NCBI RefSeq assembly: GCF_003058365.1
Contig: NZ_CP028858.1
Coordinates: 1,846,836-1,910,835, forward strand
Reading direction: 5' to 3'
DNA length: 64,000 nucleotides
DNA from: Halococcoides cellulosivorans
GTDB lineage: Archaea > Halobacteriota > Halobacteria > Halobacteriales > Haloarculaceae
A model generated the notes under the pieces. That model searched no databases. It was not told where the DNA came from and saw only the letters and a list, made by a program, of their open reading frames with translations. A program made the translations under genes and the position numbers. Each line of letters begins with the position of its first letter. Within the stretch, counting starts at the first letter, position 1. Positions 8,210 through 47,109 of the stretch are shown here, one piece after another.

Positions 8210-9784
8210 ATGAGTGCCCTCGCGTCGATCCCCCTCGATGTCGTCCATTCGGTCGACCCGGGGACGGTCGCGGTGTTCTCGGTTCTCGCTGGCGGCCTCG
8301 GCATGAGCATCCGGAACGTCTTCGACTCGATCATGTCCGAGGAAGACGGCGACGAGGACGACGAGGGCGACGAGGACGACCTGATGGGCGGTGACGACGA
8401 CCTCGGAGGACTGGGCGATTTCGACGACGGCGACGACGAGTTCGGTGACTTCGACGACGGCGACCTGGGCGACATGGAGGGCGACGGCGCCGACACGGAC
8501 GAACTCGAACACCGTCTCGACGAGATCGAAAACGAGGTCGGGAGTCTGTCCTCGACGGTCAACACCGTCCGCAACGAGAACGAACAGATCAGTGAGACCG
8601 TCGACGACGTCGAAGAGAACGTCCGCAAACTGCTCGACATCTACGAGATGGTGACTCGCGGCGTGAACCCCTTCGCTGACGACGTCGAGGGGTCCGGGTT
8701 CGCCGGCGGCGGAGCCGAGGGCTCCTTCGGACTGTTCGACTCCGAACCCGACGAACAGGACGACGACGACGCTCTCGACGAGGATCTCGCGGACGCCGAC
8801 CCCGAGGGCTTTTTCGACGAAGACCTCGCGGACGATCCGGACGATTTCGACGACGTCGACGACTTCGGCAGCGGAGCCATCGACAGCGGTGAAAGTGACG
8901 GATCGAGCAGTGCCGACGATAGCGGTGGCGACGGCGGCAAGTCGTTTCAGGACCTCAAAGACGAGTACGAGAACGGCGACGCGGAGTGGGCCGAGGGTGA
9001 GGACCCGGACGACGTGGAGAGCTTCGACGACGAGTTCGACGACGAAGCCCTGGACGACGAGTTCGACGACGAGGCTCTGGACGACGATTTCGACGACGAG
9101 GCCCTTGACGAGGCCGCCGAGGACGCGCTCGACGACGGACTGTCAGAGGACGCCTCCGACGACGCGGACGAGACGAGCGACGAGGCGATGGACGATCTGG
9201 CCGACGACGACCTGTTCGACACCGTCATCGACGACGAGGAACCGACCGCTGAAGAACCGACCGACGAGTCGGGCGATGACCCTGCGCCCAGTCAGGATCC
9301 CGAACCGTCGCCGGATCCCGATCCAACCACCGAGACGACCGCACGACCGGATTCGGTCGACGACACAGACGCGGCCACCGATGAAGACGCGATCGACGAG
9401 ACCGCAGATCCCGCGACGGCGACCGATGACGGCGAGTCGGCAGCCACGACCGCTGGCGACGGGAAGCCCTACCTGACGACGGTCCCCGACGGGCCGGTCC
9501 GTGAGGTCGTGACGATCGAGTGGCTCGAACACCTCGTCGACCGCCTCGGGACGAGTAACGCCCGACAGGCACTCCAGTACTACGAGCGGATCGGCTGGAT
9601 CAGCGCGGACGCGCGTGCGGAACTCGAACGCTATCTCGCGGGCATCGACGGCGAGCCGACGGGAGTCGACCCCGACGTCGAGGTCCACACGACCAGCCTG
9701 GGGTACATCCAGGAATTGAACGGGACGGGCCGATCGTCGATCGGCCTCGGCAGTGGAGGTGACCTGGATGGGATTCAGCGTTAG
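8210..9784 (+). CDS. flaCDE: Archaellum accessory protein FlaC/D/E-type (ArlCDE): N-terminal coiled-coil FlaC-like region, about 270-aa D/E-rich linker, C-terminal FlaD/E domain
   Basis: C-terminal WLEHLVDRLGTSNARQALQYYERIGWISADARAELERYLAGI is the FlaD/FlaE domain signature. It sits first in the F-G-H-I-J operon. Confidence 0.8.
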   Translation: MSALASIPLDVVHSVDPGTVAVFSVLAGGLGMSIRNVFDSIMSEEDGDEDDEGDEDDLMGGDDDLGGLGDFDDGDDEFGDFDDGDLGDMEGDGADTDELEHRLDEIENEVGSLSSTVNTVRNENEQISETVDDVEENVRKLLDIYEMVTRGVNPFADDVEGSGFAGGGAEGSFGLFDSEPDEQDDDDALDEDLADADPEGFFDEDLADDPDDFDDVDDFGSGAIDSGESDGSSSADDSGGDGGKSFQDLKDEYENGDAEWAEGEDPDDVESFDDEFDDEALDDEFDDEALDDDFDDEALDEAAEDALDDGLSEDASDDADETSDEAMDDLADDDLFDTVIDDEEPTAEEPTDESGDDPAPSQDPEPSPDPDPTTETTARPDSVDDTDAATDEDAIDETADPATATDDGESAATTAGDGKPYLTTVPDGPVREVVTIEWLEHLVDRLGTSNARQALQYYERIGWISADARAELERYLAGIDGEPTGVDPDVEVHTTSLGYIQELNGTGRSSIGLGSGGDLDGIQR

Positions 9785-10208
9785 TGGGTCGGCAGCGATC
9801 ATCTTCGCCGCGATGTTCATCGCGTTCGGAATGTTTTATACAGCGACGACGACCAGCGCCGATCGGGTGACCGACGCCACCGACGACTGGCGCGACCGAT
9901 CGCTCGACCTGCAGAACGCGGCGATCACCGTCGAGAACGTCACCGTCGAGTCCAGCGGCGGGACCTACGCCGTCAACGCGACGGTCCTGAACACGGGCGG
10001 AGCGACGCTCGCAGTCTCTCGGACGGATTTCTTGATCGATAACACCTACCAGACCGCGTTCGTCGACCGGGCCGTCGAGGGTGACGGCGAGACCGACCTC
10101 TGGGTGCCCGGCGAGCGTCTGACCGCGAACATGACCGTCGGGAGTGCGCCGAGCCGACTCCGGGTCGTCACCGACCACGGCGTCGCCGCGACGGAGGTGA
10201 TCGCCTGA
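9768..10208 (+). CDS. flaF: Archaellum protein FlaF (ArlF)
   Basis: N-terminal TM helix plus beta-rich body (FlaF/FlaG family) and operon position. GGAGGTGA lies before the ATG at 9768; the track start 9753 is GTG. Confidence 0.8.
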   Translation: MGFSVSGSAAIIFAAMFIAFGMFYTATTTSADRVTDATDDWRDRSLDLQNAAITVENVTVESSGGTYAVNATVLNTGGATLAVSRTDFLIDNTYQTAFVDRAVEGDGETDLWVPGERLTANMTVGSAPSRLRVVTDHGVAATEVIA

Positions 10209-10657
10209 TGGCGAGCGTCTCGGCGTCTCACCTGATCATCTTCATCGCGAGCATTCTCGTCGCGGCGACCGTCGCCGGAACGATCACCGCGACGGTTGCC
10301 GACATGAGTCAGTCACTCGAAACACAGGGTGTCGACGTCTCGGATCAGATCGCGACCGATTTCGCGGTCATCACCGACGCCGGCGCACAGGTGTACGATC
10401 GCGACGGGGCAGAGAACGTCACCCTACACGTCAAAAACACCGGGTCGCGGTATCTCCCGGACGACGCCAGTCAGATCGACGTCTTCGTCGACGGTGAGTA
10501 CACGACCGACGTGACGGTGACGATCGTCGACGGGACGGCCTGGACGCCCGGGTCAGTCGCGCGGTTCGACGTCGCCGCCCCCGGCCTGACGACTGGCGAT
10601 CACCGCGTCAAGATCGTCGCCGGCGGCCACGAGGAGGTGTTCGAATTCCGACTATGA
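10208..10657 (+). CDS. flaG: Archaellum protein FlaG (ArlG)
   Basis: N-terminal hydrophobic helix (MASVSASHLIIFIASILVAATVAG), FlaG fold-like body, and operon position. Confidence 0.8.
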   Translation: MASVSASHLIIFIASILVAATVAGTITATVADMSQSLETQGVDVSDQIATDFAVITDAGAQVYDRDGAENVTLHVKNTGSRYLPDDASQIDVFVDGEYTTDVTVTIVDGTAWTPGSVARFDVAAPGLTTGDHRVKIVAGGHEEVFEFRL

Positions 10658-11415
10658 GCGTCGCAACACAAGACCTGTACTCGATCGGACTGAGCGAGCG
10701 AGACCGACTGAACAAGGAACTCGGCGGCGGGTTCCCCCCGGGCAGCATCGTCCTCATCGAGGGCGACTACGGGGCCGGCAAGTCCGCGATGACCCAGCGG
10801 TTCTCGTATGGCCTCTGTACGGAGGGCCACCAGGTCACCTATCTCTCGACGGAGATCACCGTCGGCGGCTTTCTCGAACAGATGCACTCGCTGGACTACG
10901 GCATGGTCCAGCACCTCCTGGACGAGCAGATTCTCTTCTTGCACGCCGACATCGCGGACACGAACACGTTCCAGAACAGCGACGAAGAGACCGAGCGCAA
11001 GGAACTGCTCCGGCGTCTGATGGAGGCCGAGGCGATGTGGGAGTCGGACATCATCCTCATCGACACGTTCGACGCCATCCTGCGGAACGACCCCAAATTC
11101 GAGGCGCTGATCCGCCAGAACGACGAACGACAGGCGGCCCTGGAGATCATCTCCTTTTTCCGTGACGTCATCTCGCGGGGGAAGGTCATCGTGTTGACGG
11201 TCGACCCGTCGACGCTGGCCGAGGAGGCGATCGGGCCGTTCCGGTCGATCGCTGACGTCTTCCTCGAACTGGAGATGGTCGAGGTCGGCAACGACGTCCG
11301 CCGCCAGATCTCCGTCAAGCGGTTCGCGGGCATGGGCGAACAGGTCGGAGACAGTATCGGCTACTCCGTCCGCTCGGGGACGGGGATCGTCATCGAATCG
11401 AGGAGTGTCGCATGA
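10654..11415 (+). CDS. flaH: Archaellum ATPase-like protein FlaH (ArlH), KaiC/RecA-like
   Basis: Walker A GDYGAGKSAM and a KaiC-like fold. Its start overlaps the flaG stop. Confidence 0.9.
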   Translation: MSVATQDLYSIGLSERDRLNKELGGGFPPGSIVLIEGDYGAGKSAMTQRFSYGLCTEGHQVTYLSTEITVGGFLEQMHSLDYGMVQHLLDEQILFLHADIADTNTFQNSDEETERKELLRRLMEAEAMWESDIILIDTFDAILRNDPKFEALIRQNDERQAALEIISFFRDVISRGKVIVLTVDPSTLAEEAIGPFRSIADVFLELEMVEVGNDVRRQISVKRFAGMGEQVGDSIGYSVRSGTGIVIESRSVA

Positions 11416-13079
11416 CCGAACAAGGCACGGCCAAGCCGTCGGACGAACTCCGGCGTCACGCCGCGCGCCGCCCGCACCTCAGCGAGCACCTCAAGAAGTT
11501 CAAGCAGATCACCGGCGAGTTCCCGATGTTCGTCGACGAGATCGGCGGCGATTACGAGACCGACCGGCCGAACGTCATCTACCCGGTCGGTGGCCCGATC
11601 TACACGCACATCTACGGCGACATCGGCCAGGACATCAAATACTACGCCATCGAACCGGAACTCGACGACGACGAGCGCGTCGTCTTCGATCAGGTCCGGG
11701 ACCGCCTGCTCGAAAAGAGCGTTCACGGGGCCGCCCCCGAGGCCGACGACGAGTACGACGACCGTATCGAGGAGCTCCTGGGAGAGACGACACGGATCCG
11801 TGACGACGAGACGGGCGTGCTTTCGCGACTCTCGAAGCTGCGTGACGTCGGCAAGGTCGACCTCGACGAATCGACCTACGAGAACATCCGGTATCGCTTG
11901 AACCGCGACATCGTCGGGCTGGGCCCGCTCGAACCGGTGATGCGCGATACGGCGAACGAGGACATTCACGTCATCGGGCCCCACGAGTGTTACGTCGACC
12001 ACGAAGTGTACAGCCTGATCGAGACGACCGTCGACTTCGGAGAACCCGACGAGTTCGAACAGTGGCTGCGAAACATGGGCGAGCGGATCGGTGACCCCGT
12101 CTCGGACAACGACCCGATCATCGACTCGACACTGCCCGACGGGTCGCGTATCAACATCATCTATTCGGACGACGTTTCGGTCAAAGGCCCCTCGCTGACC
12201 ATCCGGCAGGGCCAGGAAGAGCCGCTGAGCACGTTCCAGATCGCGAAGTGGGGGACGCTCAGCCCCGAACTCGCGGCGTACCTCTGGCTCGCTTTAGAGA
12301 ACGAACAGACGATCTTCGTCGTCGGGGAGACGGCGTCCGGGAAGACGACGACGCTGAACGCGATCACGTCGTTCATCCCCCGCGACTCGAAGATCTACAC
12401 CGCCGAGGACACCGCCGAGGTCATGCCGCCACACAACACCTGGCAGCAACTCATGACCCGGGAGGGCGACGACGAGTCCAGTAGCGTCGACATGTTCGAT
12501 CTGGTCGCGGCCGCACTCCGGTCGCGGCCCGATTACATCATCGTCGGTGAGGTTCGTGGGGAGGAGGGGCGGATGGCGTTCCAGGCCGCCCAGACCGGCC
12601 ACCCGGTCATGCTGACCTTCCACGCGTCTGACATCGTCTCGATGATTCAGCGGTTCACCGGCGACCCGATCAACGTCCCCGAGACGTTCATGGACAACGC
12701 CGACATCGCGCTGTTCCAGAACCGGGTCAAACAGGGCGACGACGTGCTCCGCCGGGTCACGTCGGTCCAGGAGATCGAGGGCTACTCCAAGGAGATGGAC
12801 GGTGTCGTCACCCGACAGGCCTTCTACTGGGATCCCGTCGAAGACGAGATCGTCTTCCAGGGGATGAACAACTCCTACGTGCTCGAAGAGCAGATCGCGA
12901 CGCTGCTGGGCTACGAAGACACCCGCGACATCTACGACGATTTGCAGTTCCGCGCGAAGTTGATCGAGCGCGCGATCCAGGAGAACATCCTCGGCTACCA
13001 CGAGGTCAACGAGTTCATCGAGAACTACCAGCGTGACGGCCTCGAAGGGGTTCCGTTCGACATCCACCGGGAGCAATAA
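11412..13079 (+). CDS. flaI: Archaellum assembly ATPase FlaI (ArlI), type II/IV secretion ATPase family
   Basis: VVGETASGKTTTLNAITSFIP Walker A, and an Asp box plus His box typical of VirB11/PilT-like ATPases. Confidence 0.95.
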   Translation: MTEQGTAKPSDELRRHAARRPHLSEHLKKFKQITGEFPMFVDEIGGDYETDRPNVIYPVGGPIYTHIYGDIGQDIKYYAIEPELDDDERVVFDQVRDRLLEKSVHGAAPEADDEYDDRIEELLGETTRIRDDETGVLSRLSKLRDVGKVDLDESTYENIRYRLNRDIVGLGPLEPVMRDTANEDIHVIGPHECYVDHEVYSLIETTVDFGEPDEFEQWLRNMGERIGDPVSDNDPIIDSTLPDGSRINIIYSDDVSVKGPSLTIRQGQEEPLSTFQIAKWGTLSPELAAYLWLALENEQTIFVVGETASGKTTTLNAITSFIPRDSKIYTAEDTAEVMPPHNTWQQLMTREGDDESSSVDMFDLVAAALRSRPDYIIVGEVRGEEGRMAFQAAQTGHPVMLTFHASDIVSMIQRFTGDPINVPETFMDNADIALFQNRVKQGDDVLRRVTSVQEIEGYSKEMDGVVTRQAFYWDPVEDEIVFQGMNNSYVLEEQIATLLGYEDTRDIYDDLQFRAKLIERAIQENILGYHEVNEFIENYQRDGLEGVPFDIHREQ

Positions 13080-14818
13080 TGGCGACCCAGGAGGCCACCG
13101 TCGATTCGTCGCTGTCGGAGTTGTTCGCCTCCCTCGTCGACTCGTATCGCCGGTTGCCGATGCCGCTCGGGGTGTATCTCACCCGGTATCTCGTCCCGGC
13201 GGGCGTCTTTTTCGTCGTCACACTGATCGCCCCGTTCGTCCTCCCGCTGCCGCTCGGGATCGCCCTGCCGATCCCGCTGCTCGGCCTGTTGATCTTCGGG
13301 TCGGTCGTGTTCTATCCGAAGATCCTGATCTCTCAGCGACGCCGCGCACTCAACAATCGCTTTCATCTGATGGTCACACACATGACCGTGCTCTCGACGA
13401 CGAACATCGACCGGATGGAGGTGTTTCGCGCGCTCTCGAAAGAAGAGGAGTACGGCGCGCTGGCCGAGGAACTCCGCCGGATCGTCGAACTCGTCGACAC
13501 CTGGAATCTCAGTCTCGACGACGCGTGTCGCCGCCGCGCCAAGGAAGTCCCCAGCGATCACCTCAGTGATTTCTTCGATCGGCTCTCCTACACGTTGGGG
13601 GCCGGCCAGTCGCTGGAAGACTATCTCGTCAGCGAGCAGGACATGATGATCGAGAACTACAAGACCGTCTATCGGGGGACGCTGGGGAACCTGAACGTCA
13701 TGCAGGACCTGTATCTGTCGATGATCCTCTCGATGACGTTCGCGCTCGTCTTTGCGATCGTCCTGCCGATCCTCACCGGGACGAACCCCACGATGACCGT
13801 CGCCGCGGTCATCTTGATGTTCATCCTCGTGCAGTCGGGGTTCTATCTGGCCGTCCGGTCGATCGCTCCGTACGACCCGGTCTGGTTTCACCCCACCAGC
13901 GTCGAGGGGCCCATCCAGCAGCGACTCGATCGCGCGTTCAAGATCGGTGTCGGCCTGTCGGCGCTGTTGGTCCTGATCGCGTTCGGCGGCACGCTCGGCG
14001 TCACGCCCGGATTCGAGGCGTTGCTCCCCTGGGTCGACGAGTTGCCGCTCCCGCTCTATGTCGCCATCCCGATGACGCCCATGCTGTACCCGGGAATCGT
14101 CGCCCGCCAGGCCGAACAGAAGATCAAAGGCCGCGACGACGAGTTCCCGAGTTTCATCCGCGCGCTGGGTGCGACCGAAGGCGCCAAGCAGTCGACGACC
14201 GGGGCCGTGCTGGCCAGTCTGCGCAACAAGGACTTCGGCCCGCTGACCGAGAACGTCGACAACCTCTATCGTCGGCTCAACATGCGTCTCGAACCCGCGA
14301 AGGCCTGGCATCACTTCGCCGCCGGCACGGGATCGTACCTCATCCAGAAGTTCTCCGAGATGTATCTCGTCGGCCGGAAGATGGGTGGGTCTCCGAAGAT
14401 GCTCGGTGAGTTGATCAGCGCCAACATGAACGAGATCCTCCAGCTCCGCCAGGAGCGCACCCAGGAGACGACGACGCTCATCGGGATGTTGTACGGGATC
14501 ACCGCCGCGTCGGTCTTTGCCTTCTTCATCGGCCTTGAGATCGTCACGATCCTCTCGGGGATGAGCCTGGATCTGGCCTCGTCGGCGGAGTTCGACGTGA
14601 ACTCGCTGATCAACGCGAGTGTCTACAACATCCCGCTGATCGAGGCACTGCTGATCGTCGTCATCGTGTTCAACGCGATCCTTTCGGCGCTGATGATCCG
14701 GACGCTCGACGGCGGGCACAAGATGAACACCTACATGCACATCGTCGCGCTCACCTGGATCGGCGCGATCACCGGCGTATTCACGCGGTGGATGGTCGGC
14801 CAGTTCCTCGCGATCTGA
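13079..14818 (+). CDS. flaJ: Archaellum membrane platform protein FlaJ (ArlJ)
   Basis: Polytopic membrane protein with TadB/C-like repeats. Its ATG overlaps the flaI stop (TAATGG). Confidence 0.9.
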   Translation: MATQEATVDSSLSELFASLVDSYRRLPMPLGVYLTRYLVPAGVFFVVTLIAPFVLPLPLGIALPIPLLGLLIFGSVVFYPKILISQRRRALNNRFHLMVTHMTVLSTTNIDRMEVFRALSKEEEYGALAEELRRIVELVDTWNLSLDDACRRRAKEVPSDHLSDFFDRLSYTLGAGQSLEDYLVSEQDMMIENYKTVYRGTLGNLNVMQDLYLSMILSMTFALVFAIVLPILTGTNPTMTVAAVILMFILVQSGFYLAVRSIAPYDPVWFHPTSVEGPIQQRLDRAFKIGVGLSALLVLIAFGGTLGVTPGFEALLPWVDELPLPLYVAIPMTPMLYPGIVARQAEQKIKGRDDEFPSFIRALGATEGAKQSTTGAVLASLRNKDFGPLTENVDNLYRRLNMRLEPAKAWHHFAAGTGSYLIQKFSEMYLVGRKMGGSPKMLGELISANMNEILQLRQERTQETTTLIGMLYGITAASVFAFFIGLEIVTILSGMSLDLASSAEFDVNSLINASVYNIPLIEALLIVVIVFNAILSALMIRTLDGGHKMNTYMHIVALTWIGAITGVFTRWMVGQFLAI

Positions 14819-23198: not shown

Positions 23199-23276
23199 AG
23201 CGGGGGTTCGACGGCCGAGTGTTTAGCGATGGCGGCGGCCAATCGATTAAATTGTCGCCAAATGCAGCCCAAAAGA

Positions 23277-23298
23277 CGCCCGAGGCGGGATTTGAACC
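23277..23298 (-). repeat. 22-nt exact copy of the tRNA-Asp 3' end (T-arm/acceptor fragment), att-like direct repeat
   Basis: cgcccgaggcgggatttgaacc is identical to 23663-23684 of the intact tRNA-Asp. The T-stem does not pair, so it is a fragment, not a gene. Confidence 0.7.
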
Positions 23299-23396: not shown

Positions 23397-23469
23397 CGCC
23401 CGGAGCGGGATTTGAACCCGCGTCACGACCGTGACAGGGTCGTATGATGGGCCACTACACCATCCGGGC
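23397..23469 (-). tRNA. tRNA-Asp (GUC), copy 1
   Basis: Reverse complement folds as GCCCGGA / D-arm / CGACC-CTGTCAC-GGTCG (anticodon GTC) / GCGGG-TTCAAAT-CCCGC / TCCGGGC + G. CCA is not encoded. Confidence 0.85.
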
Positions 23470-23662
23470 TCGCACCCTCACTTTCCGGGACGGCATATTA
23501 AGACTTTCTTCTGGCCCTCGACCACACGCAGGCTCCGGGGTCACGGAGTCTTTATCAGTCAAAGCGGAACGGACCGGAAGCCGACCCAGATCGATCACCC
23601 CGTTCGCAGAGACGGGATCGAATGGCAGTCGCTTCGCTCACCACGATGTTCCTCACAGAAAG

Positions 23663-23735
23663 CGCCCGAGGCGGGATTTGAACCCGCGTCACGACCGTGA
23701 CAGGGTCGTATGATGGGCCACTACACCACCCGGGC
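23663..23735 (-). tRNA. tRNA-Asp (GUC), copy 2 (acceptor G6-U67 wobble)
   Basis: Near-identical to copy 1 with the same anticodon arm; 3 nt differ in the acceptor stem. Confidence 0.85.
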
Positions 23736-23946
23736 TTCCATTCCATGCTTCGCGGACGGAGACATAAGCCTTCCCTCTCGGGGTCGGCGTGAGTCGGCGT
23801 CCCGTGGGGCGATTCGACACGCCAATTCCCCCGCTGCGGGCGACCGCTCGCCACTGACCGGCCGAAACGGACTTGACAACCGTTAAGTAGCCGCCGGCGG
23901 TACCCGCCTGTAGTATCTCGAAGCGGATTCTCCGACCCCCCAACCC

Positions 23947-24174
23947 ATGGTCAATGTAAGCGCCCACGAACTCGTGCCCGACCACAGCATCCTCGACAGC
24001 GACGACCTCGAGGACGTGCTCGCGGAGTACAACATCCGAAAGACCGACTTGCCGAAGATCGCGTCCGACGACCCGGCCCTGCCCGAAAAGGCCGACGTCG
24101 GTGACGTGATCCGCATCATTCGGGACTCGCGAACGACAGACACCGCCGTCAACTACAGACTCGTGACCGAATAA
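23947..24174 (+). CDS. rpoH: DNA-directed RNA polymerase subunit H (Rpb5-like)
   Basis: 75-aa RpoH signature (VPDHSILD...IRKTDLPKI...GDVIRIIR), directly upstream of rpoB. Confidence 0.9.
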
Positions 24175-24175
24175 C

Positions 24176-25735
24176 ATGGATCAACACGACCGCCGCACGA
24201 TCTCACGGGAGTACTTCTCGCGGGAACGACTCGCAGACCATCACTTCCGGTCGTTCAACGGCTTCCTCGACCGGGGCATGCAGGAGGTCGTCGACGAGAA
24301 GGCGACCATCGACACCGACATCGGTGACAAGGAAGGCGAAGAGCCCGTCTGGGTCGAACTCGGTGACGTACGCATCGTCACCCCGCGCGTGCGAGAGGCC
24401 GACGGGAGCGAGGAACTGCTCTACCCCCAGGAGGCCCGTCTGCGGAACATCACCTACGCCGCCCCGGTGTTCATGGAGATGGCGATCGTCAAGGGCGGCG
24501 AAGAGGAAGAGGAACGCGTCGTCGACCAGACCGAGACCAAGGTGGGCCAGATGCCCGTCATGGTCGGGTCGAACAAGTGCAACATCGCGGGGTTCAATCG
24601 CGAGGAACTGATCGACATCGGCGAAGACCCCGCCGACCCGGGCGGGTACTTCCTGGTCAACGGCTCCGAGCGCGTCCTGATGACCAGCGAAGACCTCGCG
24701 CCCAACAAGATCCTCGCGGAGTACGACACGAAGTACGGTGACGAGATCCAGGTCGCGAAGACGTTCTCCCAGCGGCGGGGGTACCGTGCGCTCGTCCTGG
24801 TCGAGCGCAACCGTGAGGGACTGCTCGAAATTTCGTTCCCCTCGGTCTCGGGGAGTGTCGATTTCGTCACGCTCGTGCGCGCGCTCGGCCTCGAAAGCGA
24901 CGAGGAGATCGTCCACCGCGTGAGCGACGACCCCGAGATCGTGAAGTTCATGCTCGAAAACCTGGAGGCCGCCGACGTCCACTCCACCGAGGAGGCCATC
25001 GAGACGCTCGGGCAGCGCGTCGCCGCCGGGCAGGGCAAAAACTACCAGCTCAAACGCGCGAACTACGTCATCGACCGGTATCTCCTGCCCCACCTCCACG
25101 AAGAGGGCGTCGACGACGAGGAGGTCCGGATCAACAAGGCGTTCTATCTCTGCCGGATGGCCGAGGCGTGTTTCGAACTCGCACTCAATCGACGGGATTC
25201 CGACGACAAAGACCACTACGCCAACAAGCGCCTGAAGGTCTCTGGCGATCTGATGCGCGACCTGTTCCGGACCGCGCTAAACAAGCTCGCCCGCGACGTG
25301 AAATACCAGCTCGAACGGGCGAACATGCGGAATCGCAACCTCTCGGTCTCGACGGTCGTTCGCTCGGACGTCCTGACCGAACGGCTCGAACACCCGCTCG
25401 CGACGGGCAACTGGGTCGGCGGTCGATCCGGAGTCTCTCAGCTCGTCGACCGGACGGACTTCATGGGTGTACTCAGCCACCTCCGCCGACTGCGCTCGCC
25501 GCTCAGCCGGTCACAGCCACACTTCGAGGCCCGCGACCTCCACGCCACGCAGTGGGGTCGGATCTGTCCCTCCGAGACGCCCGAAGGGCCGAACTGTGGG
25601 CTGGTGAAGAACTTCGCGCAGGCGATGGAGCTCTCCCAGCACGTCGAGGACGAGAAGCCGCTCAAGCGGACTCTCTCGGAGATGGGCGTCGAGGGCGTCC
25701 CCGGCGTGACCGACGACATGCCAGCAGACGACTGA
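24176..25735 (+). CDS. rpoB2: DNA-directed RNA polymerase subunit B'' (N-terminal half of RpoB)
   Basis: Rpb2 N-half motifs ending at GRICPSETPEGPNCGLVKN; 519 aa matches haloarchaeal B'' of about 520 aa. Confidence 0.9.
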   Translation: MDQHDRRTISREYFSRERLADHHFRSFNGFLDRGMQEVVDEKATIDTDIGDKEGEEPVWVELGDVRIVTPRVREADGSEELLYPQEARLRNITYAAPVFMEMAIVKGGEEEEERVVDQTETKVGQMPVMVGSNKCNIAGFNREELIDIGEDPADPGGYFLVNGSERVLMTSEDLAPNKILAEYDTKYGDEIQVAKTFSQRRGYRALVLVERNREGLLEISFPSVSGSVDFVTLVRALGLESDEEIVHRVSDDPEIVKFMLENLEAADVHSTEEAIETLGQRVAAGQGKNYQLKRANYVIDRYLLPHLHEEGVDDEEVRINKAFYLCRMAEACFELALNRRDSDDKDHYANKRLKVSGDLMRDLFRTALNKLARDVKYQLERANMRNRNLSVSTVVRSDVLTERLEHPLATGNWVGGRSGVSQLVDRTDFMGVLSHLRRLRSPLSRSQPHFEARDLHATQWGRICPSETPEGPNCGLVKNFAQAMELSQHVEDEKPLKRTLSEMGVEGVPGVTDDMPADD

Positions 25736-25847
25736 TGGGTCGCGTGCACGCGCCACGCGACTCCCGTATCGATTGCCGACCGGCGACCGACGACAGCGGG
25801 GACCGACGGTCCCCACACAATCGGGCTCCGCCCGACGACACCAACAC

Positions 25848-28799
25848 ATGAGTACGGGCCATTCCCCCCAGGAAATCGGGTCGATCAGCTTCGGGCTGAT
25901 GGACCCCGAGGAGTATCGCGACATGAGTGCCACGAAGGTCATCACCGCCGACACCTACGACGACGACGGGTTCCCCATCGACATGGGGCTGATGGACCCC
26001 CGACTCGGCGTCATCGACCCCGGGCTGGAGTGTAAGACCTGCGGCAAGCATTCCGGGTCGTGTAACGGCCACTTCGGTCACATCGAACTCGCCGCACCGG
26101 TGATCCACGTCGGGTTCGCGAAGTTGATCCGACGCCTGCTCCGGGGCACCTGTCCCGAGTGCTCGCGGCTGAGCCTCACCGAAGACGAGCGCGAGGACTA
26201 CCGCGAGAATCTGAAGCGCACGAAAGCCCTCGACGGCGATCCGACCGACGTGATGAAAGCCGGGATTCGCGACGCGCGCAGTCGCGACCGGTGTCCGTTC
26301 TGTGGCACGCCCCAGAACGACATCAAACACGAGAAGCCGACCACCTACTACGAGGTCATCGACGTCCCCCACGAGGAGTACCCCGACCGGGTCGTCGAGG
26401 CGATGGAAGGCGGCGAGGACCGCGAGCGCACGACGCCCGAGGACCTCGCCGAGGAGACCGGGATCGAACTGAGCCGGATCAACGACATCATCTCGGGTGA
26501 CTTCCGCCCGAGCGTCGACCAGCTCGGGGCGATCGCCGACGCGATCGGCGTCAACCGGACGACGTTCCTCGAAGAGGACATGGACAAGCTGATGCCCTCG
26601 GATATCCGGGACTGGTTCGAGGAGATCCCCGACGAGGACCTCGAAGTGCTGGGGATCAGCTCCGAACTGTCGCGGCCCGAGTGGATGATTCTCACCGTCC
26701 TGCCGGTCCCGCCGGTGACGGCCCGCCCGTCGATTACCCTCGACAACGGGCAACGCAGCGAGGACGACCTGACACACAAGCTGGTGGACATCATCCGGAT
26801 CAACCAGCGGTTCATGGAGAACCGCGAGGCCGGTGCGCCCCAGCTGATCATCGAAGACCTCTGGGAACTGCTGCAGTACCACGTCACGACGTTCATGGAC
26901 AACGAGATTTCGGGGACGCCGCCGGCCCGCCACCGCTCGGGGCGGCCGCTGAAGACCCTCTCCCAGCGCCTGAAAGGCAAGGAGGGTCGCTTCCGAGGGT
27001 CGCTGTCGGGCAAGCGTGTGAACTTCTCCGCGCGGACGGTCATCTCGCCGGACCCGACCCTCTCGCTCAACGAGGTCGGCGTCCCCGACCGCGTCGCCAG
27101 CGAGATGACACAGACGATGAACGTCAACGAGCGGAATCTCGCCCAGGCCCGCCAGTACGTCGCCAACGGGCCCGAAAACCATCCCGGCGCGAACTACGTC
27201 CGCCGGCCCGACGGACGCCGACTGAAAGTCACCGAGAAGAACTGCGAGGAACTCGCAGAGAAGGTCGAGGCTGGCTGGGAGGTCGCTCGCCACCTCGTCG
27301 ACGGCGACATCGTGATGTTCAACCGTCAGCCGTCGCTGCACCGGATGTCGATCATGGCTCACGAGGTCGTGGTCATGCCCTACAAGACGTTCCGCTTGAA
27401 CACGACGGTCTGTCCGCCGTACAACGCTGACTTCGACGGCGACGAGATGAACATGCACGCCCTCCAGAACGAGGAGGCACGTGCCGAAGCACGGGTCCTG
27501 ATGCGCGTGCAAGAACAGATCCTCTCGCCGCGCTTCGGGGAGAACATCATCGGGGCGATTCAGGACCACATCTCGGGACTGTATCTGCTGACCCACGAGA
27601 ACCCCCGGTTCAACGAGACCCAGTCGCTGGACTTGCTGCGGACGACCCAGGTCGACGAACTGCCCGAACCGGACGGGTATCGCGACAGGCCGTCGGCGCA
27701 TCGAGACGGCGACGCCGTCGACGACAGGGCGCCCTACTGGACCGGCCGATCGATCTTCTCGGAGTTGCTCCCGGACGATCTCGACCTCGAATTCACGTCT
27801 TCGGCGGGCGACACGGTCGTCATCGACGACGGCCAACTCCTGGAGGGGACGATCGACGAGGACGCCGTCGGTGGGTTCGGTGGCGACATCGTCGACACCA
27901 TCGCGAAAGCCTACGACATGACGGCCGCACGGATGTTCATCAACGAGGTCTCCTCGCTCGCGGTCCGAACGATCATGCACTTCGGGTTCTCGATCGGGAT
28001 CGACGACGAGTCGATTCCCGAGGCCGCGACGGCTCAGATCGACGAGGCGATCGACAACGCCGAAGAGCGCGTCCAGGAACTCATCGAGACATACCGACAG
28101 GGCGACCTGGAGAGTCTGCCGGGCCGCACCGTCGACGAGACCCTGGAGATGAAGGTCATGCAGACGCTCGGCAAGGCCCGTGACTCTGCGGGTGACATCG
28201 CCGAAGACCACTTCTCCGACGACAACCCCGCGGTCGTGATGGCCGAGTCCGGGGCGCGTGGGTCGATGCTGAACCTGACTCAGATGGCCGCCTGTGTCGG
28301 CCAGCAGGCCGTCCGTGGCGAGCGGATCAACCGTGGCTACGAGGGGCGGACGCTCAGTCACTTCAAGGCCGACGACCTCTCCTCGGAGGCCCACGGGTTC
28401 GTCGAGCACTCCTACCGCGAGGGCCTCGGCCCGCGGGAGTTTTTCTTCCACGCGATGGGGGGCCGGGAGGGCCTGGTCGACACGGCCGTCCGAACGTCGA
28501 AGTCGGGCTACCTCCAGCGTCGCCTGATCAACGCGCTCTCGGAACTCGAAACCCAGTACGACGGCACCGTCCGGGACACCGGCGACAAGATCGTCCAGTT
28601 CGAGTTCGGCGAGGACGGCACCAGTCCGGTGACGGTCTCCTCGTCGGCCGACAACGACATCGACGTCGAGTCGATCGCCCAGCGCGTCCTCGACAAAGAG
28701 TTCGACAGCGACGCCGAGCGCGACGAGTTCTTCGGGCGCACTGAACAGCCGACCAACCTCTCCGAACACGCCGACGACCGCTGGCAACAGCAGGCCTGA
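25848..28799 (+). CDS. rpoA1: DNA-directed RNA polymerase subunit A'
   Basis: Zn-binding [20 protein letters not shown], catalytic [10 protein letters not shown], and trigger-loop regions. ATG at 25848 ([11 protein letters not shown]). Confidence 0.95.
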
Positions 28800-28803
28800 A
28801 CCA

Positions 28804-30027
28804 ATGAGCCAACACGACACCGACTACGACCCGACAGGTTCGTTCGACGCCGTCGACACCGATATCGAACTCGTCGTCGAGGACACCGACCTCCCGCGTC
28901 GCCTGAAGACCGAAGTCTATCGCGAGATCGACGATCGCGAACTCGACACCGAGGGCGCACAGGAAGTCGCGAGCGCCGTCGAAGCGCGGTATATCGACAC
29001 GCGCGTCGATCCGCTCGACCCCGTCGGGACCGTCTCGGCCCAGTCGATCGGTGAACCTGGCACACAGATGACAATGAACACGTTTCATTACGCCGGGGTC
29101 GCAGAAATCGACGTCACACAGGGCCTGCCGCGCCTGATCGAGCTGGTCGACGCGCGCAAGGAACCTGACACGCCGATGATGACCGTCCACCTCGACGAAG
29201 AGCACGCGACCGATCGCGAGCGCGCTCACGAGGTGGTCTGGAAGATCGAATCGACGCGGATCCTCCAGCTCGGTGACGTCTCGACGAACGTCGCGGACAT
29301 GATCGTCGGGATCGAACTCAACCCCGACACGCTCGCCGAGCGCTGGCCGACCGTCAGCGTCGAGGAGGCCGCCGAGGACATCGAGTCGACGATCGCAGAC
29401 ACGCTCGGTGTCGACACCCGTCGCAGCGAGAACGTCATCGAGTTCGGGCCCGACGAGCCGTCCTATCGGGAACTGCTCCAGTTGGTCGAGGAACTCCGGG
29501 AGATCACCTTCAAGGGAATCAGCGAGGTCTCGCGGGTCGTCATCCGCAAAGAAGAGACCGACCATCCCGAGCGCGAGGAGGAGTTCGTCCTCTACACCGA
29601 GGGGTCGGAGCTCAGTGACGTCCTCGAAATCGAGGGCGTCGACGCGTCCCGGTCGACCTGTAACAACATTCACGAGATCCACGAGTGTCTCGGAATCGAG
29701 GCCGCCCGCGAGGCGATCATCAACGAGACGATGAACACCCTCGAAGAGCAGGGCCTGGACGACGTGAACGTCCGGCACCTGATGCTCGTCGCGGACATCA
29801 TGACCAATCGTGGCGAGATCCAGTCGATCGGGCGCCACGGCATCTCGGGCAACAAAGACAGCGTCCTCGCGCGCGCAGCGTTCGAGGTGACGGTCTCACA
29901 CCTGCTCGACGCCGCGATTCAAGGCGAGATCGACGACCTCGACGGCGTCACCGAGAACGTCATCGTCGGGAAGCCGATCAAACTCGGGACGGGCGACGTG
30001 AACCTGCGGATGGGTTCGACCGACTGA
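28804..30027 (+). CDS. rpoA2: DNA-directed RNA polymerase subunit A''
   Basis: Homology to the C-terminal third of Rpb1/beta' ([16 protein letters not shown]...). Confidence 0.95.
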
Positions 30028-30452
30028 TGCGACGCCTGGACGACGAGGCCCGCCGCCTGGCGGGTGCGATCGACGAGGCGACCGGCGGGACCGTCCGGGA
30101 CTGTGTCGTCGAGGCCGATCGCGCGATCGTCCTCATCGCGCCCGAGGACATGGCCCAGGTCATCGGCGAAGGTGGCGGCCGGATTCGCGACCTCGAAGAG
30201 CGTGTCGGCCGTGATCTCAAACTCGTCGCGGACGCACCAACGCCCGAGGGCCTGATCGGGAACGCCCTCGAACCCGCCGCGGTCGGTGCGGTGACCATCG
30301 AGGACCGTGAGGACGAACGCGTCGCCGTCGCGCAGGTCGACCCCGCGGATCGCGGCGTCGCGATCGGTCGAGACGGTCGGAACGTCGCGGCGGCGGAGAC
30401 GCTCGCGGCCCGTCACACCGACGTCGATCGCGTCGAGATCGACACCGCGTGA
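30027..30452 (+). CDS. nusA: Archaeal NusA-like KH-domain transcription factor
   Basis: Two KH domains (GGxxG: [15 protein letters not shown]). TGATG overlap with rpoA''. Confidence 0.85.
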
Positions 30453-30501: not shown

Positions 30502-30930
30502 ATGGCGAACGGCAAATACGCCGCGCGCAAACTCAAGCAGGACCGCCAGAAACACCGGTGGTCCGACACGGATTACGCCCGTCGGGAACGCGGACTCGGC
30601 GAGAAGTCCGACCCCCTCGAAGGCGCGCCCCAGGGACGGGGCATCGTCCTCGAGAAGGTCGGGATCGAGGCCAAACAGCCCAACTCGGCAATCCGGAAAT
30701 GCGTGCGCGTCCAGTTGATCAAGAACAGCAAGCAAGTCACCGCGTTCTGTCCCGGTGACGGCGCAATCAGCTTCATCGACGAGCACGACGAGGTCACGAT
30801 CGCCGGCATCGGCGGCGCGAAGGGTCGTGCGATGGGTGACCTCTCCGGTGTCAACTACAAAGTCGAGAAGGTCAACGGCGTCTCGATGATCGAACTCGTG
30901 CGCGGGAACGCCGAGAAACCGGTGCGATAA
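30502..30930 (+). CDS. rps12: 30S ribosomal protein S12 (uS12)
   Basis: [13 protein letters not shown]...VTAFCPGDG signature. Confidence 0.95.
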
Positions 30931-30932
30931 CC

Positions 30933-31544
30933 ATGTCCGCAGAGAGCGAATCCGACGACACCCCCGAGGAAAGCGAAGAATCGACGATCGGCGCGAAACT
31001 GTTCGGTGAGTACGCGACCGACGGCATCGAGTTCTCGGACCCGTCGACCGAGCGGTACGTGACGATCACGCCGATCGCCCACACGATGGGGCGTCACACC
31101 GGCAAGCAGTTCGACAAAAGCGAGATCTCGATCGTCGAGCGCCTGATCAACCGGCTGATGCAGACCGACGAGAACACCGGGAAGAAACAGCAGACCACGC
31201 GGATCGTCCGCGAGGCGTTCGCGATCATCGAGTCCCGGGCCGACGAGAACCCGATCCAGGTCCTCGTCGGGGCCGTCGAGAACGCCGCGCCGCGCGAGGA
31301 GACCGTCCGTCTGAAATACGGTGGCATCTCCGTCCCGAAGGCCGTCGACATCTCCCCGCAGCGCCGCGTCGACCAGGCGCTGAAGTTCATCGCGGAAGGC
31401 GTCTACAAGGACGCGTTCAAGACGACGACCGACGCCGAAGACGCGCTCGCGCGCCAGTTGATCGGCGCGGCCGACGACGACGTCGACACCTACGCCGTCA
31501 ACCAGAAAGAAGAGAAAGAGCGCGTCGCCGCCGCCGCGCGATAG
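30933..31544 (+). CDS. rps7: 30S ribosomal protein S7 (uS7)
   Basis: uS7 fold motifs with an acidic N-terminus. Confidence 0.95.
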   Translation: MSAESESDDTPEESEESTIGAKLFGEYATDGIEFSDPSTERYVTITPIAHTMGRHTGKQFDKSEISIVERLINRLMQTDENTGKKQQTTRIVREAFAIIESRADENPIQVLVGAVENAAPREETVRLKYGGISVPKAVDISPQRRVDQALKFIAEGVYKDAFKTTTDAEDALARQLIGAADDDVDTYAVNQKEEKERVAAAAR

Positions 31545-31669
31545 TCGGATCTTTCTTCTACGCCGTCCGTTCTCGAAACGGGCACAGAACGCCCTCCAGA
31601 GGGGGTCAGTCACACCGTCTCAACTCTGCCATCGCGTCCCAACCCGGCACGGCCCGCGGATCGGTCGGT

Positions 31670-45236: not shown

Positions 45237-46091
45237 ATGACGCTCAGCCTGCTCGTGCCGTCGTCGCTCACGCGGGAAGCCCCGGACAAACGCGAAGCGA
45301 CCCGGAAGATCGGTACCGTCGCTCGGACGGCGGTGATCTTCGGGGTCGACCGGATCACGGTCTATCCGGATCCGGACGGGGACGCCGCCCGCGGCGGCGG
45401 GTTCGTCGCCACGGTGTTGGCCTACGCCGCCACACCCCCCTACCTCCGAAAGGACGTATGGGACAGGCGGGACGAACTGGAGCAAGTTGGCGTCTTGCCG
45501 CCGCTCCGCGTCGGAACACGGACCGGCTCCGGATCGGACGATTCGGGGTCGTTGAGACAGGGACTCGTGACCGAGGTCGGATCTGATGGGCGCGTCCGGG
45601 TCAATTGCGGACTGCAACACCCGATCTCCCTGCCCGTTCCGGGCGACCGGAGCGTTCGCAAGGGAGAGCGCGTCACCGTCAGGATCTCTTCGAGACGACC
45701 GGTCCGCGCGAAGATCGTCGACCACGACCCACCGGGGTACAGTGTCGACCGAGCGGACCTGGACACCGCGCTCGATCGAGCCGATTCCGGACTCCGGGTG
45801 GCTGCGTCGCGACACGGCGTGGCGACCACGACCGGCCGGCTCGATCGACTCGTCGGAGCGATCGCCGATCGCGGCGGACTGACCGTCGCCTTTGGCGCAC
45901 CCGAACGCGGTCTCCCGGCCATCCTCGGCCGGGACCCGCCGGCAGCAGAGTGGCCGGCAGACCTGGAGTCCGGATCGGACGGCGACCGATTCGACCTCTG
46001 GCTCAACACGATCCCGGATCAGGGCAGCGAGGTCGTTCGCACCGAAGAGGCTGCGATCGCGACGCTCGCCTGCCTGACGCTGACGGAGTGA
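45237..46091 (+). CDS. SPOUT-superfamily RNA methyltransferase (COG2106-like)
   Basis: Trefoil-knot MTase-like motifs, located immediately upstream of rpl3. Start at the internal ATG 45237. Confidence 0.55.
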   Translation: MTLSLLVPSSLTREAPDKREATRKIGTVARTAVIFGVDRITVYPDPDGDAARGGGFVATVLAYAATPPYLRKDVWDRRDELEQVGVLPPLRVGTRTGSGSDDSGSLRQGLVTEVGSDGRVRVNCGLQHPISLPVPGDRSVRKGERVTVRISSRRPVRAKIVDHDPPGYSVDRADLDTALDRADSGLRVAASRHGVATTTGRLDRLVGAIADRGGLTVAFGAPERGLPAILGRDPPAAEWPADLESGSDGDRFDLWLNTIPDQGSEVVRTEEAAIATLACLTLTE

Positions 46092-46098
46092 GAACGCG

Positions 46099-47109
46099 AT
46101 GCCACAACCAAACCGACCACGGAAAGGCTCGATGGGCTTCAGCCCGCGCTCGCGAGCGGCCAGCGAGACGCCACGATTCGAGAGTTGGCCAGACGACGAC
46201 GGCCAGCCCTCGATCCAGGGCTTCGCCGGCTACAAAGCCGGCATGACCCACGTGGTGATGATCGAAGACCGCCCCGACGCCCCCCGCGAGGGGATGGAGA
46301 CGACGGTGCCGGTCACGGTCGTCGAGACACCGCCGATGCGCGCGGTGGCCCTCCGAGCCTACGAAGAGACGCCGTACGGCCTGCGCCCACTGACGGAGGT
46401 CTGGACCGACGAGTTCCACGCGGACCTCGATCGCGCCCTGGACCTGCCCGAGGGCCCGGCCGGCGGCACTGAAGCACAGATCCGAGACGCCATCGAATCG
46501 GGCGATCTGGGCGACCTGCGGGTCATCACCCACACGGTCCCCGAGATGCTCGACGGCGTCCCGAAGAACAAACCCGACGTGATGGAGACGCGCCTCGGCG
46601 GCGGCACGCTCGAAGATCGGCTGGAGCACGGCCTCGAACTCATCGAGGACGGTGGAGAACACGGCGTCAACGACGTGTTCCGTGCCGGCGAGTACGCCGA
46701 CATCGCAGGCGTCACCAAGGGCAAGGGCACCCAGGGCCCCGTCAAGCGCTGGGGCGTCCAGAAACGAAAGGGGAAACACGCCCGCCAGGGCTGGCGCCGA
46801 CGCATCGGCAACCTCGGCCCGTGGAACCCCTCCCGGGTGCGCTCGACGGTGCCCCAGCAGGGGCAGATGGGCTACCACCAGCGGACCGAACTCAACAAGC
46901 GCCTCATCGACATCGACGAAGAGGGCGTCACCCCCGACGGTGGCTTCGTCAACTACGGCGAGGTCGAGGGGTCGTACACGCTGGTGAAAGGCTCGGTGCC
47001 CGGTCCGCAGTCCCGTCTGGTGCGCCTGCGGCCGGCCGTCCGGCCGACCGACCAGCCGCGTCTCGACCCCGAGGTGCGGTACGTTTCCACGGAGTCTAAC
47101 CAGGGATAA
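46099..47109 (+). CDS. rpl3: 50S ribosomal protein L3 (uL3)
   Basis: FAGYKAGMTHV signature. Confidence 0.95.
   Translation: MPQPNRPRKGSMGFSPRSRAASETPRFESWPDDDGQPSIQGFAGYKAGMTHVVMIEDRPDAPREGMETTVPVTVVETPPMRAVALRAYEETPYGLRPLTEVWTDEFHADLDRALDLPEGPAGGTEAQIRDAIESGDLGDLRVITHTVPEMLDGVPKNKPDVMETRLGGGTLEDRLEHGLELIEDGGEHGVNDVFRAGEYADIAGVTKGKGTQGPVKRWGVQKRKGKHARQGWRRRIGNLGPWNPSRVRSTVPQQGQMGYHQRTELNKRLIDIDEEGVTPDGGFVNYGEVEGSYTLVKGSVPGPQSRLVRLRPAVRPTDQPRLDPEVRYVSTESNQG

Follow-up and report, generated by a model that had tools for sequence, protein, structure and literature searches.

An RNA polymerase operon without rpoB' between rpoB'' and rpoA' in the archaeon Halococcoides cellulosivorans

The RNA polymerase operon of Halococcoides cellulosivorans is located within the 64-kb stretch of contig NZ_CP028858.1 analyzed here (hereafter the window) and comprises, in this order, rpoH, rpoB'', a gap of 112 bp, rpoA', rpoA'', nusA, and the genes for ribosomal proteins S12 and S7 (Table 1). 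As in other archaeal split-B operons, rpoH is found directly upstream of rpoB'', with a single nucleotide between the end of the former and the start of the latter. The product of rpoB'' is close to the approximately 520 residues typical of this half-subunit, possesses the Rpb2_1, Rpb2_2, and Rpb2_3 domains only, and terminates at the usual position (...PADD), and the order of rpoA', rpoA'', and nusA-S12-S7 downstream is canonical. RpoH and RpoA' of the window are 100% identical to the H. cellulosivorans entries in the protein databases, the next RpoH matches being 80% and then at most 76% identical, and the next best RpoA' matches 82-83%. The nearest RpoH relative (80% identity, from Logan) is encoded on a contig of 1651 bp that does not reach the rpoB''/rpoA' junction. 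Within domain 1 of RpoA', residues 196-237 give a weak match to the Pfam HTH_3 domain (E = 7.6e-06), which is also listed for some, though not all, related A' proteins.

What this operon does not contain is the gene for subunit B', which corresponds to Rpb2 domains 4-7, includes the catalytic and clamp-binding parts of the enzyme, and is indispensable. The initial annotation, made by reading the sequence, had stated that rpoB' is lacking between rpoB'' and rpoA', that only a 112-bp spacer separates the two genes, and that no frame nearby encodes B', and all of these statements proved correct. The gap measures exactly 112 bp, and a Pfam scan detected Rpb2 domains 1-3 but no Rpb2 domains 4-7 ahead of rpoA', so that rpoB' does not directly follow rpoB''. 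In addition, a tblastn search of the whole 64 kb with the 608-aa RpoB' of Haloarcula rara (extracted from L004:9568-11391) yielded nothing better than E = 0.8, which means that rpoB' is missing from the entire window and not from the gap alone.

Table 1. Genes and sequence features in and around the RNA polymerase operon of the window.
Feature	Position	Strand	Basis or remark
29-nt third copy of the tRNA 3' end	23270-23298	-	just upstream of rpoH
tRNA-Asp(GTC), two complete tandem genes	23397-23469, 23662-23735	-	
rpoH (subunit H, 75 aa)	23947-24174	+	Pfam RNA_pol_Rpb5_C, E = 1.3e-23
rpoB'' (N-terminal half of subunit B, 519 aa), intact	24176-25735	+	Pfam Rpb2 domains 1, 2, 3
Open frame of 38 codons running from the rpoB'' stop (TGATG) into the rpoA' start (ATGA)	25735-25851	+	
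Spacer in the usual slot of rpoB' (about 1.83 kb)	25736-25847	.	sequence reading, 112 bp
Hairpin 1, GTCGCGTG-7 nt-CACGCGAC	25739-25761	+	direct reading, RNA fold
42-nt block identical in the window and L081, holding hairpin 2	25775-25816	+	
Hairpin 2, GGGGACC-GAC-GGTCCCC, perfect	25798-25814	+	RNA fold
Hairpin 3, CGGGC-TCC-GCCCG	25822-25834	+	RNA fold
rpoA' (983 aa), intact	25848-28799	+	Pfam Rpb1 domains 1-5
rpoA'' (407 aa)	28804-30027	+	Pfam Rpb1 domain 5
nusA-like KH protein (141 aa)	30027-30452	+	Pfam KH_2, KH_5; translation
Ribosomal protein S12	30502-30930	+	Pfam Ribosom_S12_S23; translation
Ribosomal protein S7	30933-31544	+	Pfam Ribosomal_S7

Few gene orders in archaea are as stable as the rpoH-B''-B'-A'-A'' block, and the claim that it is broken here was supported by comparison with relatives. 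A scan restricted to one genome per species, with RpoB'' of the window as the query, returned 80 loci, 61 of which belonged to Halobacteria and the others to Methanosarcinia, Methanotrichales, Methanoperedens (ANME), and Archaeoglobi-like relatives; rpoB' is located between rpoB'' and rpoA' in every one of the 80. The same is true of Haloarculaceae archaeon H-GB2-1, whose RpoA' is the most similar (83%), and on three short JGI contigs that encode RpoB' and come from other samples, the adjacent gene directly precedes rpoB' as in the canonical operon. Compared with such canonical haloarchaeal and methanogen operons (for example, those of Haloarcula rara and H-GB2-1), the remaining seven genes of the window have the same order, strand, and tight spacing, protein identities are approximately 60-75% for RpoH, 85-90% for B'', and 77-81% for A' (83% for H-GB2-1), and the ATGA-type overlap at the start of rpoA' is common to both; the difference is that the relatives carry rpoB' (608 aa, Rpb2 domains 4-7) where the window has 112 bp of unrelated non-coding DNA. 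As in other Halobacteria, methanogens, and Archaeoglobi, subunit B is still made in two pieces and rpoB'' is a stand-alone gene; however, in all other genomes examined the genes for the two halves lie side by side and overlap or almost do so, whereas here they would be unlinked, at least 24 to 34 kb apart.

Metagenomic data lead to the same view. Degenerate DNA patterns were designed that combine the RpoB'' motif GLVKNFAQ with an N-terminal motif of RpoA' no more than a few hundred bases away. Among all JGI metagenome contigs, the pattern whose gap would accommodate a spacer of about 0-30 bp had no match, and the pattern whose gap fits the observed spacer had exactly one, the contig described below as L081. 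A direct rpoB''-rpoA' junction is thus very rare. A search of the literature found no description of an rpoB'-less arrangement, the genome itself being public. A separate peculiarity was noted among the relatives, in ten of which (L008, L011, L018, L030, L032, L034, L052, L057, L058, and L063) the best match to rpoA'' starts late, at residue 87 in several of them, at residue 32 in L018, and at residue 273 in L057, and lies 0.8-4.4 kb past the end of the best rpoA' match rather than directly after it. This displacement suggests that a sequence, possibly an intein, has been inserted within rpoA'' or immediately ahead of it.

Since gene order is so uniform among relatives, an artefact is the natural first suspicion, namely that rpoB' truly lies between rpoB'' and rpoA' and that about 1.8 kb was dropped from the assembly. 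An exact look-up of RpoH led to an independent JGI metagenome contig, Ga0207756_103462 (2770 bp, sample 3300026989; hereafter L081), which is 95.5% identical at the nucleotide level to positions 23864-25933 of the window and in which rpoH and rpoB'' are followed, after an equally long spacer of 112 bp, by the first 28 codons of rpoA'. The junction is thus reproduced in a strain that differs by 4.5%, and two assemblies of two strains, obtained independently, exclude both a mis-join and a deletion made during assembly. Moreover, the spacer is unique sequence, offering no repeat that could cause a collapse, and a single closed scaffold (2,723,120 bp, 65.74% G+C) was reported for the genome of strain HArcel1 (PMC10267330). 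Taken together, an assembly error is extremely unlikely, and the Halococcoides lineage carries the rpoB'-less arrangement as a heritable trait. Three options had been offered at the outset, relocation, deletion, and an assembly join: the L081 junction removes the assembly join and any artefactual deletion, and relocation, itself inferred, is the best reading of what remains. It had also been foreseen that the arrangement might turn out to be the norm of its lineage, which is right in so far as a close relative shares the junction, although the lineage in question is very small and stands by itself. The gene-order oddity is real but modest, and confined to this lineage.

A loss of rpoB' at this site would be harmless if the window contained a decaying or specialized duplicate of the operon, with a complete canonical version, rpoB' included, located elsewhere. 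The state of the neighboring genes speaks against this. Between the window and L081, rpoB'' differs at 75 nucleotides, 69 of which are third codon positions, with only four amino acid changes, and all four differences in rpoH are at third positions and change no residue; judged from these substitution patterns, rpoB'' is under strong purifying selection. Its divergence is also normal, the protein being 85-90% identical to 61 haloarchaeal B'' proteins (median 87.7%, compared with medians of 87-90% for the other haloarchaea among themselves). One H. cellulosivorans RpoA' and one RpoH were present among the best 120 matches to each protein, both identical to the window and neither accompanied by a paralogue, although these matches reach down to approximately 80% identity for RpoA' and 65% for RpoH, which argues that there is no spare copy of the operon. 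The canonical nusA-S12-S7 genes downstream likewise do not fit a second copy. Such a copy is hence highly improbable, and the operon in the window appears to be the working operon of the organism and no decaying duplicate.

The spacer itself shows no trace of its former occupant. Aligned with that of L081, it differs at 11 of 112 positions (9.8%), without insertions or deletions and without any bias in codon position, a divergence close to the third-position rate of rpoB'' (13%); it evolves like non-coding DNA. The possibility that it is a degraded remnant of rpoB' was rejected, as local alignment with 57 haloarchaeal rpoB' genes gave a score of 28 against a mean of 27.9 for shuffled controls and hence no similarity. 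A repeat or miniature mobile element was rejected as well, the sequence being unrepeated both in the window and in the fetched loci. Rfam returned only chance-level matches for the spacer (E at least 2.4, far below gathering scores). RNA folding predicts three short G+C-rich hairpins (energy z-score, -2.5). In L081, the stem of hairpin 1 is cut to 6 bp by two non-compensated changes, hairpin 3 keeps its stem and differs in the loop alone, and hairpin 2 falls within a run of 42 identical nucleotides that is barely longer than expected by chance (P about 0.05). No oligo-T terminator is evident by direct reading, no run of T in the spacer being longer than two, so read-through from rpoB'' into rpoA' would be the simplest expectation.

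The spacer is spanned by an open frame of 38 codons, overlooked in the initial annotation, whose ATG overlaps the stop codon of rpoB'' and whose TGA overlaps the start codon of rpoA', an arrangement that mimics the ancestral B''/B' and B'/A' junctions of relatives. It could therefore be imagined as a translated bridge, on which ribosomes restart after rpoB'' and again on rpoA', so that translational coupling is preserved. Neither of the two known sequences has a stop within the frame, direct reading reveals no Shine-Dalgarno-like GGAGG ahead of rpoA', and the chance of such a frame arising was roughly estimated at about 1%, a figure calculated post hoc. However, the peptide is not conserved: seven of 38 residues differ between the window and L081, and the 11 nucleotide differences are distributed 2/4/5 over the three codon positions, without the third-position excess expected of purifying selection, although a comparison of two sequences has low power. 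In a simulation, 71% of random variants with 11 substitutions kept the frame open, and its retention is accordingly uninformative. The 38-codon frame is probably not a protein-coding gene, and a role as a translated bridge is unlikely.

If rpoB' is neither in the window nor lost through an artefact, the question is where it went. Given that B' is indispensable, that rpoB'' is strongly constrained, and that the organism is a cultured isolate with a published RpoB phylogeny, an rpoB' gene would be expected elsewhere in the genome. RpoB-based phylogenies are mentioned for strain HArcel1 (PMC10267330), which implies that an RpoB' sequence exists. We consider it very likely that, in the Halococcoides lineage, rpoB' was relocated, or was re-acquired elsewhere and lost here, and that the present operon is single and functional. 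According to this model, a clean removal would have taken rpoB' out of the ancestral position between its two neighbors, with the 112-bp non-coding spacer and an otherwise intact operon as the result, and an intact rpoB' would be expressed from another locus, over 24 kb away on the upstream side or over 34 kb away on the downstream side. The likely route would be that a second rpoB' copy first appeared elsewhere, through duplication or transposition or through acquisition, and that the original was lost afterwards. The genes rpoH-rpoB'' and rpoA'-rpoA''-nusA-S12-S7 are probably still co-transcribed across the spacer, and synthesis of B' would be uncoupled, both transcriptionally and translationally, from that of B'' and A'.

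Several searches bear on the present location and origin of the gene. There was no Halococcoides entry among the best 120 of 7425 RpoB' homologues, these 120 all being at least 90% identical to the Haloarcula rara query, and a Halococcoides RpoB' with the expected identity of approximately 88-90% would fall just below these. Six multi-member clusters derived from the same homologue search contained no Halococcoides member. A plasmid-borne rpoB' was sought in PLSDB, which gave no haloarchaeal match, and a viral or proviral one in viral contigs, which gave only the RPB2 genes of giant viruses. A special case of an rpoB' located elsewhere is xenologous replacement, in which a foreign rpoB' was gained at another locus and the native gene was then deleted. 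That a single gene was lost so cleanly agrees with such an acquire-then-lose sequence, and the upstream flank of the operon is an integration and rearrangement hotspot, with two tRNA-Asp genes in tandem, an att-like third copy, and DNA unlike that found at this place in L081. On the other hand, that the Halococcoides RpoB' is not among the listed Haloarcula RpoB' matches of at least 90% identity is what would be expected of a vertically inherited and equally divergent protein, and a foreign origin is doubtful.

With regard to this flank, the 29-nt copy of the tRNA-Asp 3' end looks like an att-type remnant of an integrative element; it lies 2.3 kb upstream, away from the junction. Similarity between L081 and the window ends about 83 nt ahead of the rpoH start codon (window position 23864; L081 positions 1-700 lie beyond this point), and the upstream flank of L081 carries genes for DUF7286 and DUF7125 proteins that are found nowhere in the 64-kb window. 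These differences show that DNA beside the operon is actively rearranged in the Halococcoides lineage, although they do not account for the loss of rpoB'. Transposase or integrase domains were not detected in the window proteins scanned, which comprised those up to the ribosomal-protein stretch beginning at about 48.9 kb, and the junction, with its unique spacer, gives no sign of a scar left by a mobile element.

Unlinked halves of a single ancestral protein have a parallel in reduced archaeal genomes of the Nanoarchaeum equitans type, in which split genes are reportedly encoded at distant loci. The likeness would be that the halves are produced from separate loci and joined after translation. 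Unlike those cases, the split of subunit B is ancient and common to many archaea, only the linkage has been lost, and the organism is a free-living haloarchaeon with a 2.72-Mb genome. It appears improbable that the unlinking is non-neutral, with B' supply under independent control (for example, in RNA polymerase assembly) and the conserved hairpin-rich spacer or the 38-codon frame serving as a coupling or processing element that ties rpoA' expression to that of rpoB'', or that B' is foreign.

The stability of the rpoH-to-rpoA'' block is usually explained by a need to make the large RNA polymerase subunits in a balanced and coupled manner. A cultured, free-living haloarchaeon in which rpoB'' and rpoB' have come apart would represent a natural experiment indicating that adjacency of the two genes is not obligatory, and Halococcoides may help to address how stoichiometry and assembly are maintained without this linkage. 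There are also practical consequences. Phylogenetic studies of haloarchaea use rpoB' as their standard second marker, and the primers for its amplification lie in rpoB'' and rpoA' (PMC12445982). Primers HrpoB2 1420F (25595-25614, plus strand) and HrpoA 153R (25980-25999, minus strand), with sequences taken from the same source, match the window perfectly, and the amplicon predicted for this pair is 405 bp without rpoB', compared with the usual product of approximately 2.2 kb. Annotation or marker-extraction pipelines that rely on synteny could likewise miss or mis-call rpoB'.

Other parts of the window show some additional features. The gene for EF-2 does not follow that for S7; it is replaced between positions 31545 and 46000 by a stretch in which Band-7, AIR-synthase-like, GNAT acetyltransferase, KaiC-like ATPase, class II tRNA synthetase, and CBS proteins and a 1301-aa protein with GLUG motifs are encoded. 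This absence was considered as a second break in synteny and rejected, as H-GB2-1 also lacks EF-2 at that place and the absence is thus nothing unusual in the family. A strong match to the Rfam L4-Archaeoglobi ribosomal-protein leader (RF03135, 71 bits) is located at 45583-45682 on the plus strand and precedes the L3-L4-L23-L2 cluster of ribosomal protein genes, which begins at 46099. Finally, an archaellum cluster is located at 8210-14818 on the plus strand and includes FlaC/D/E-like proteins, two proteins with a flagellin fold, a KaiC-like FlaH, the FlaI ATPase, and FlaJ.
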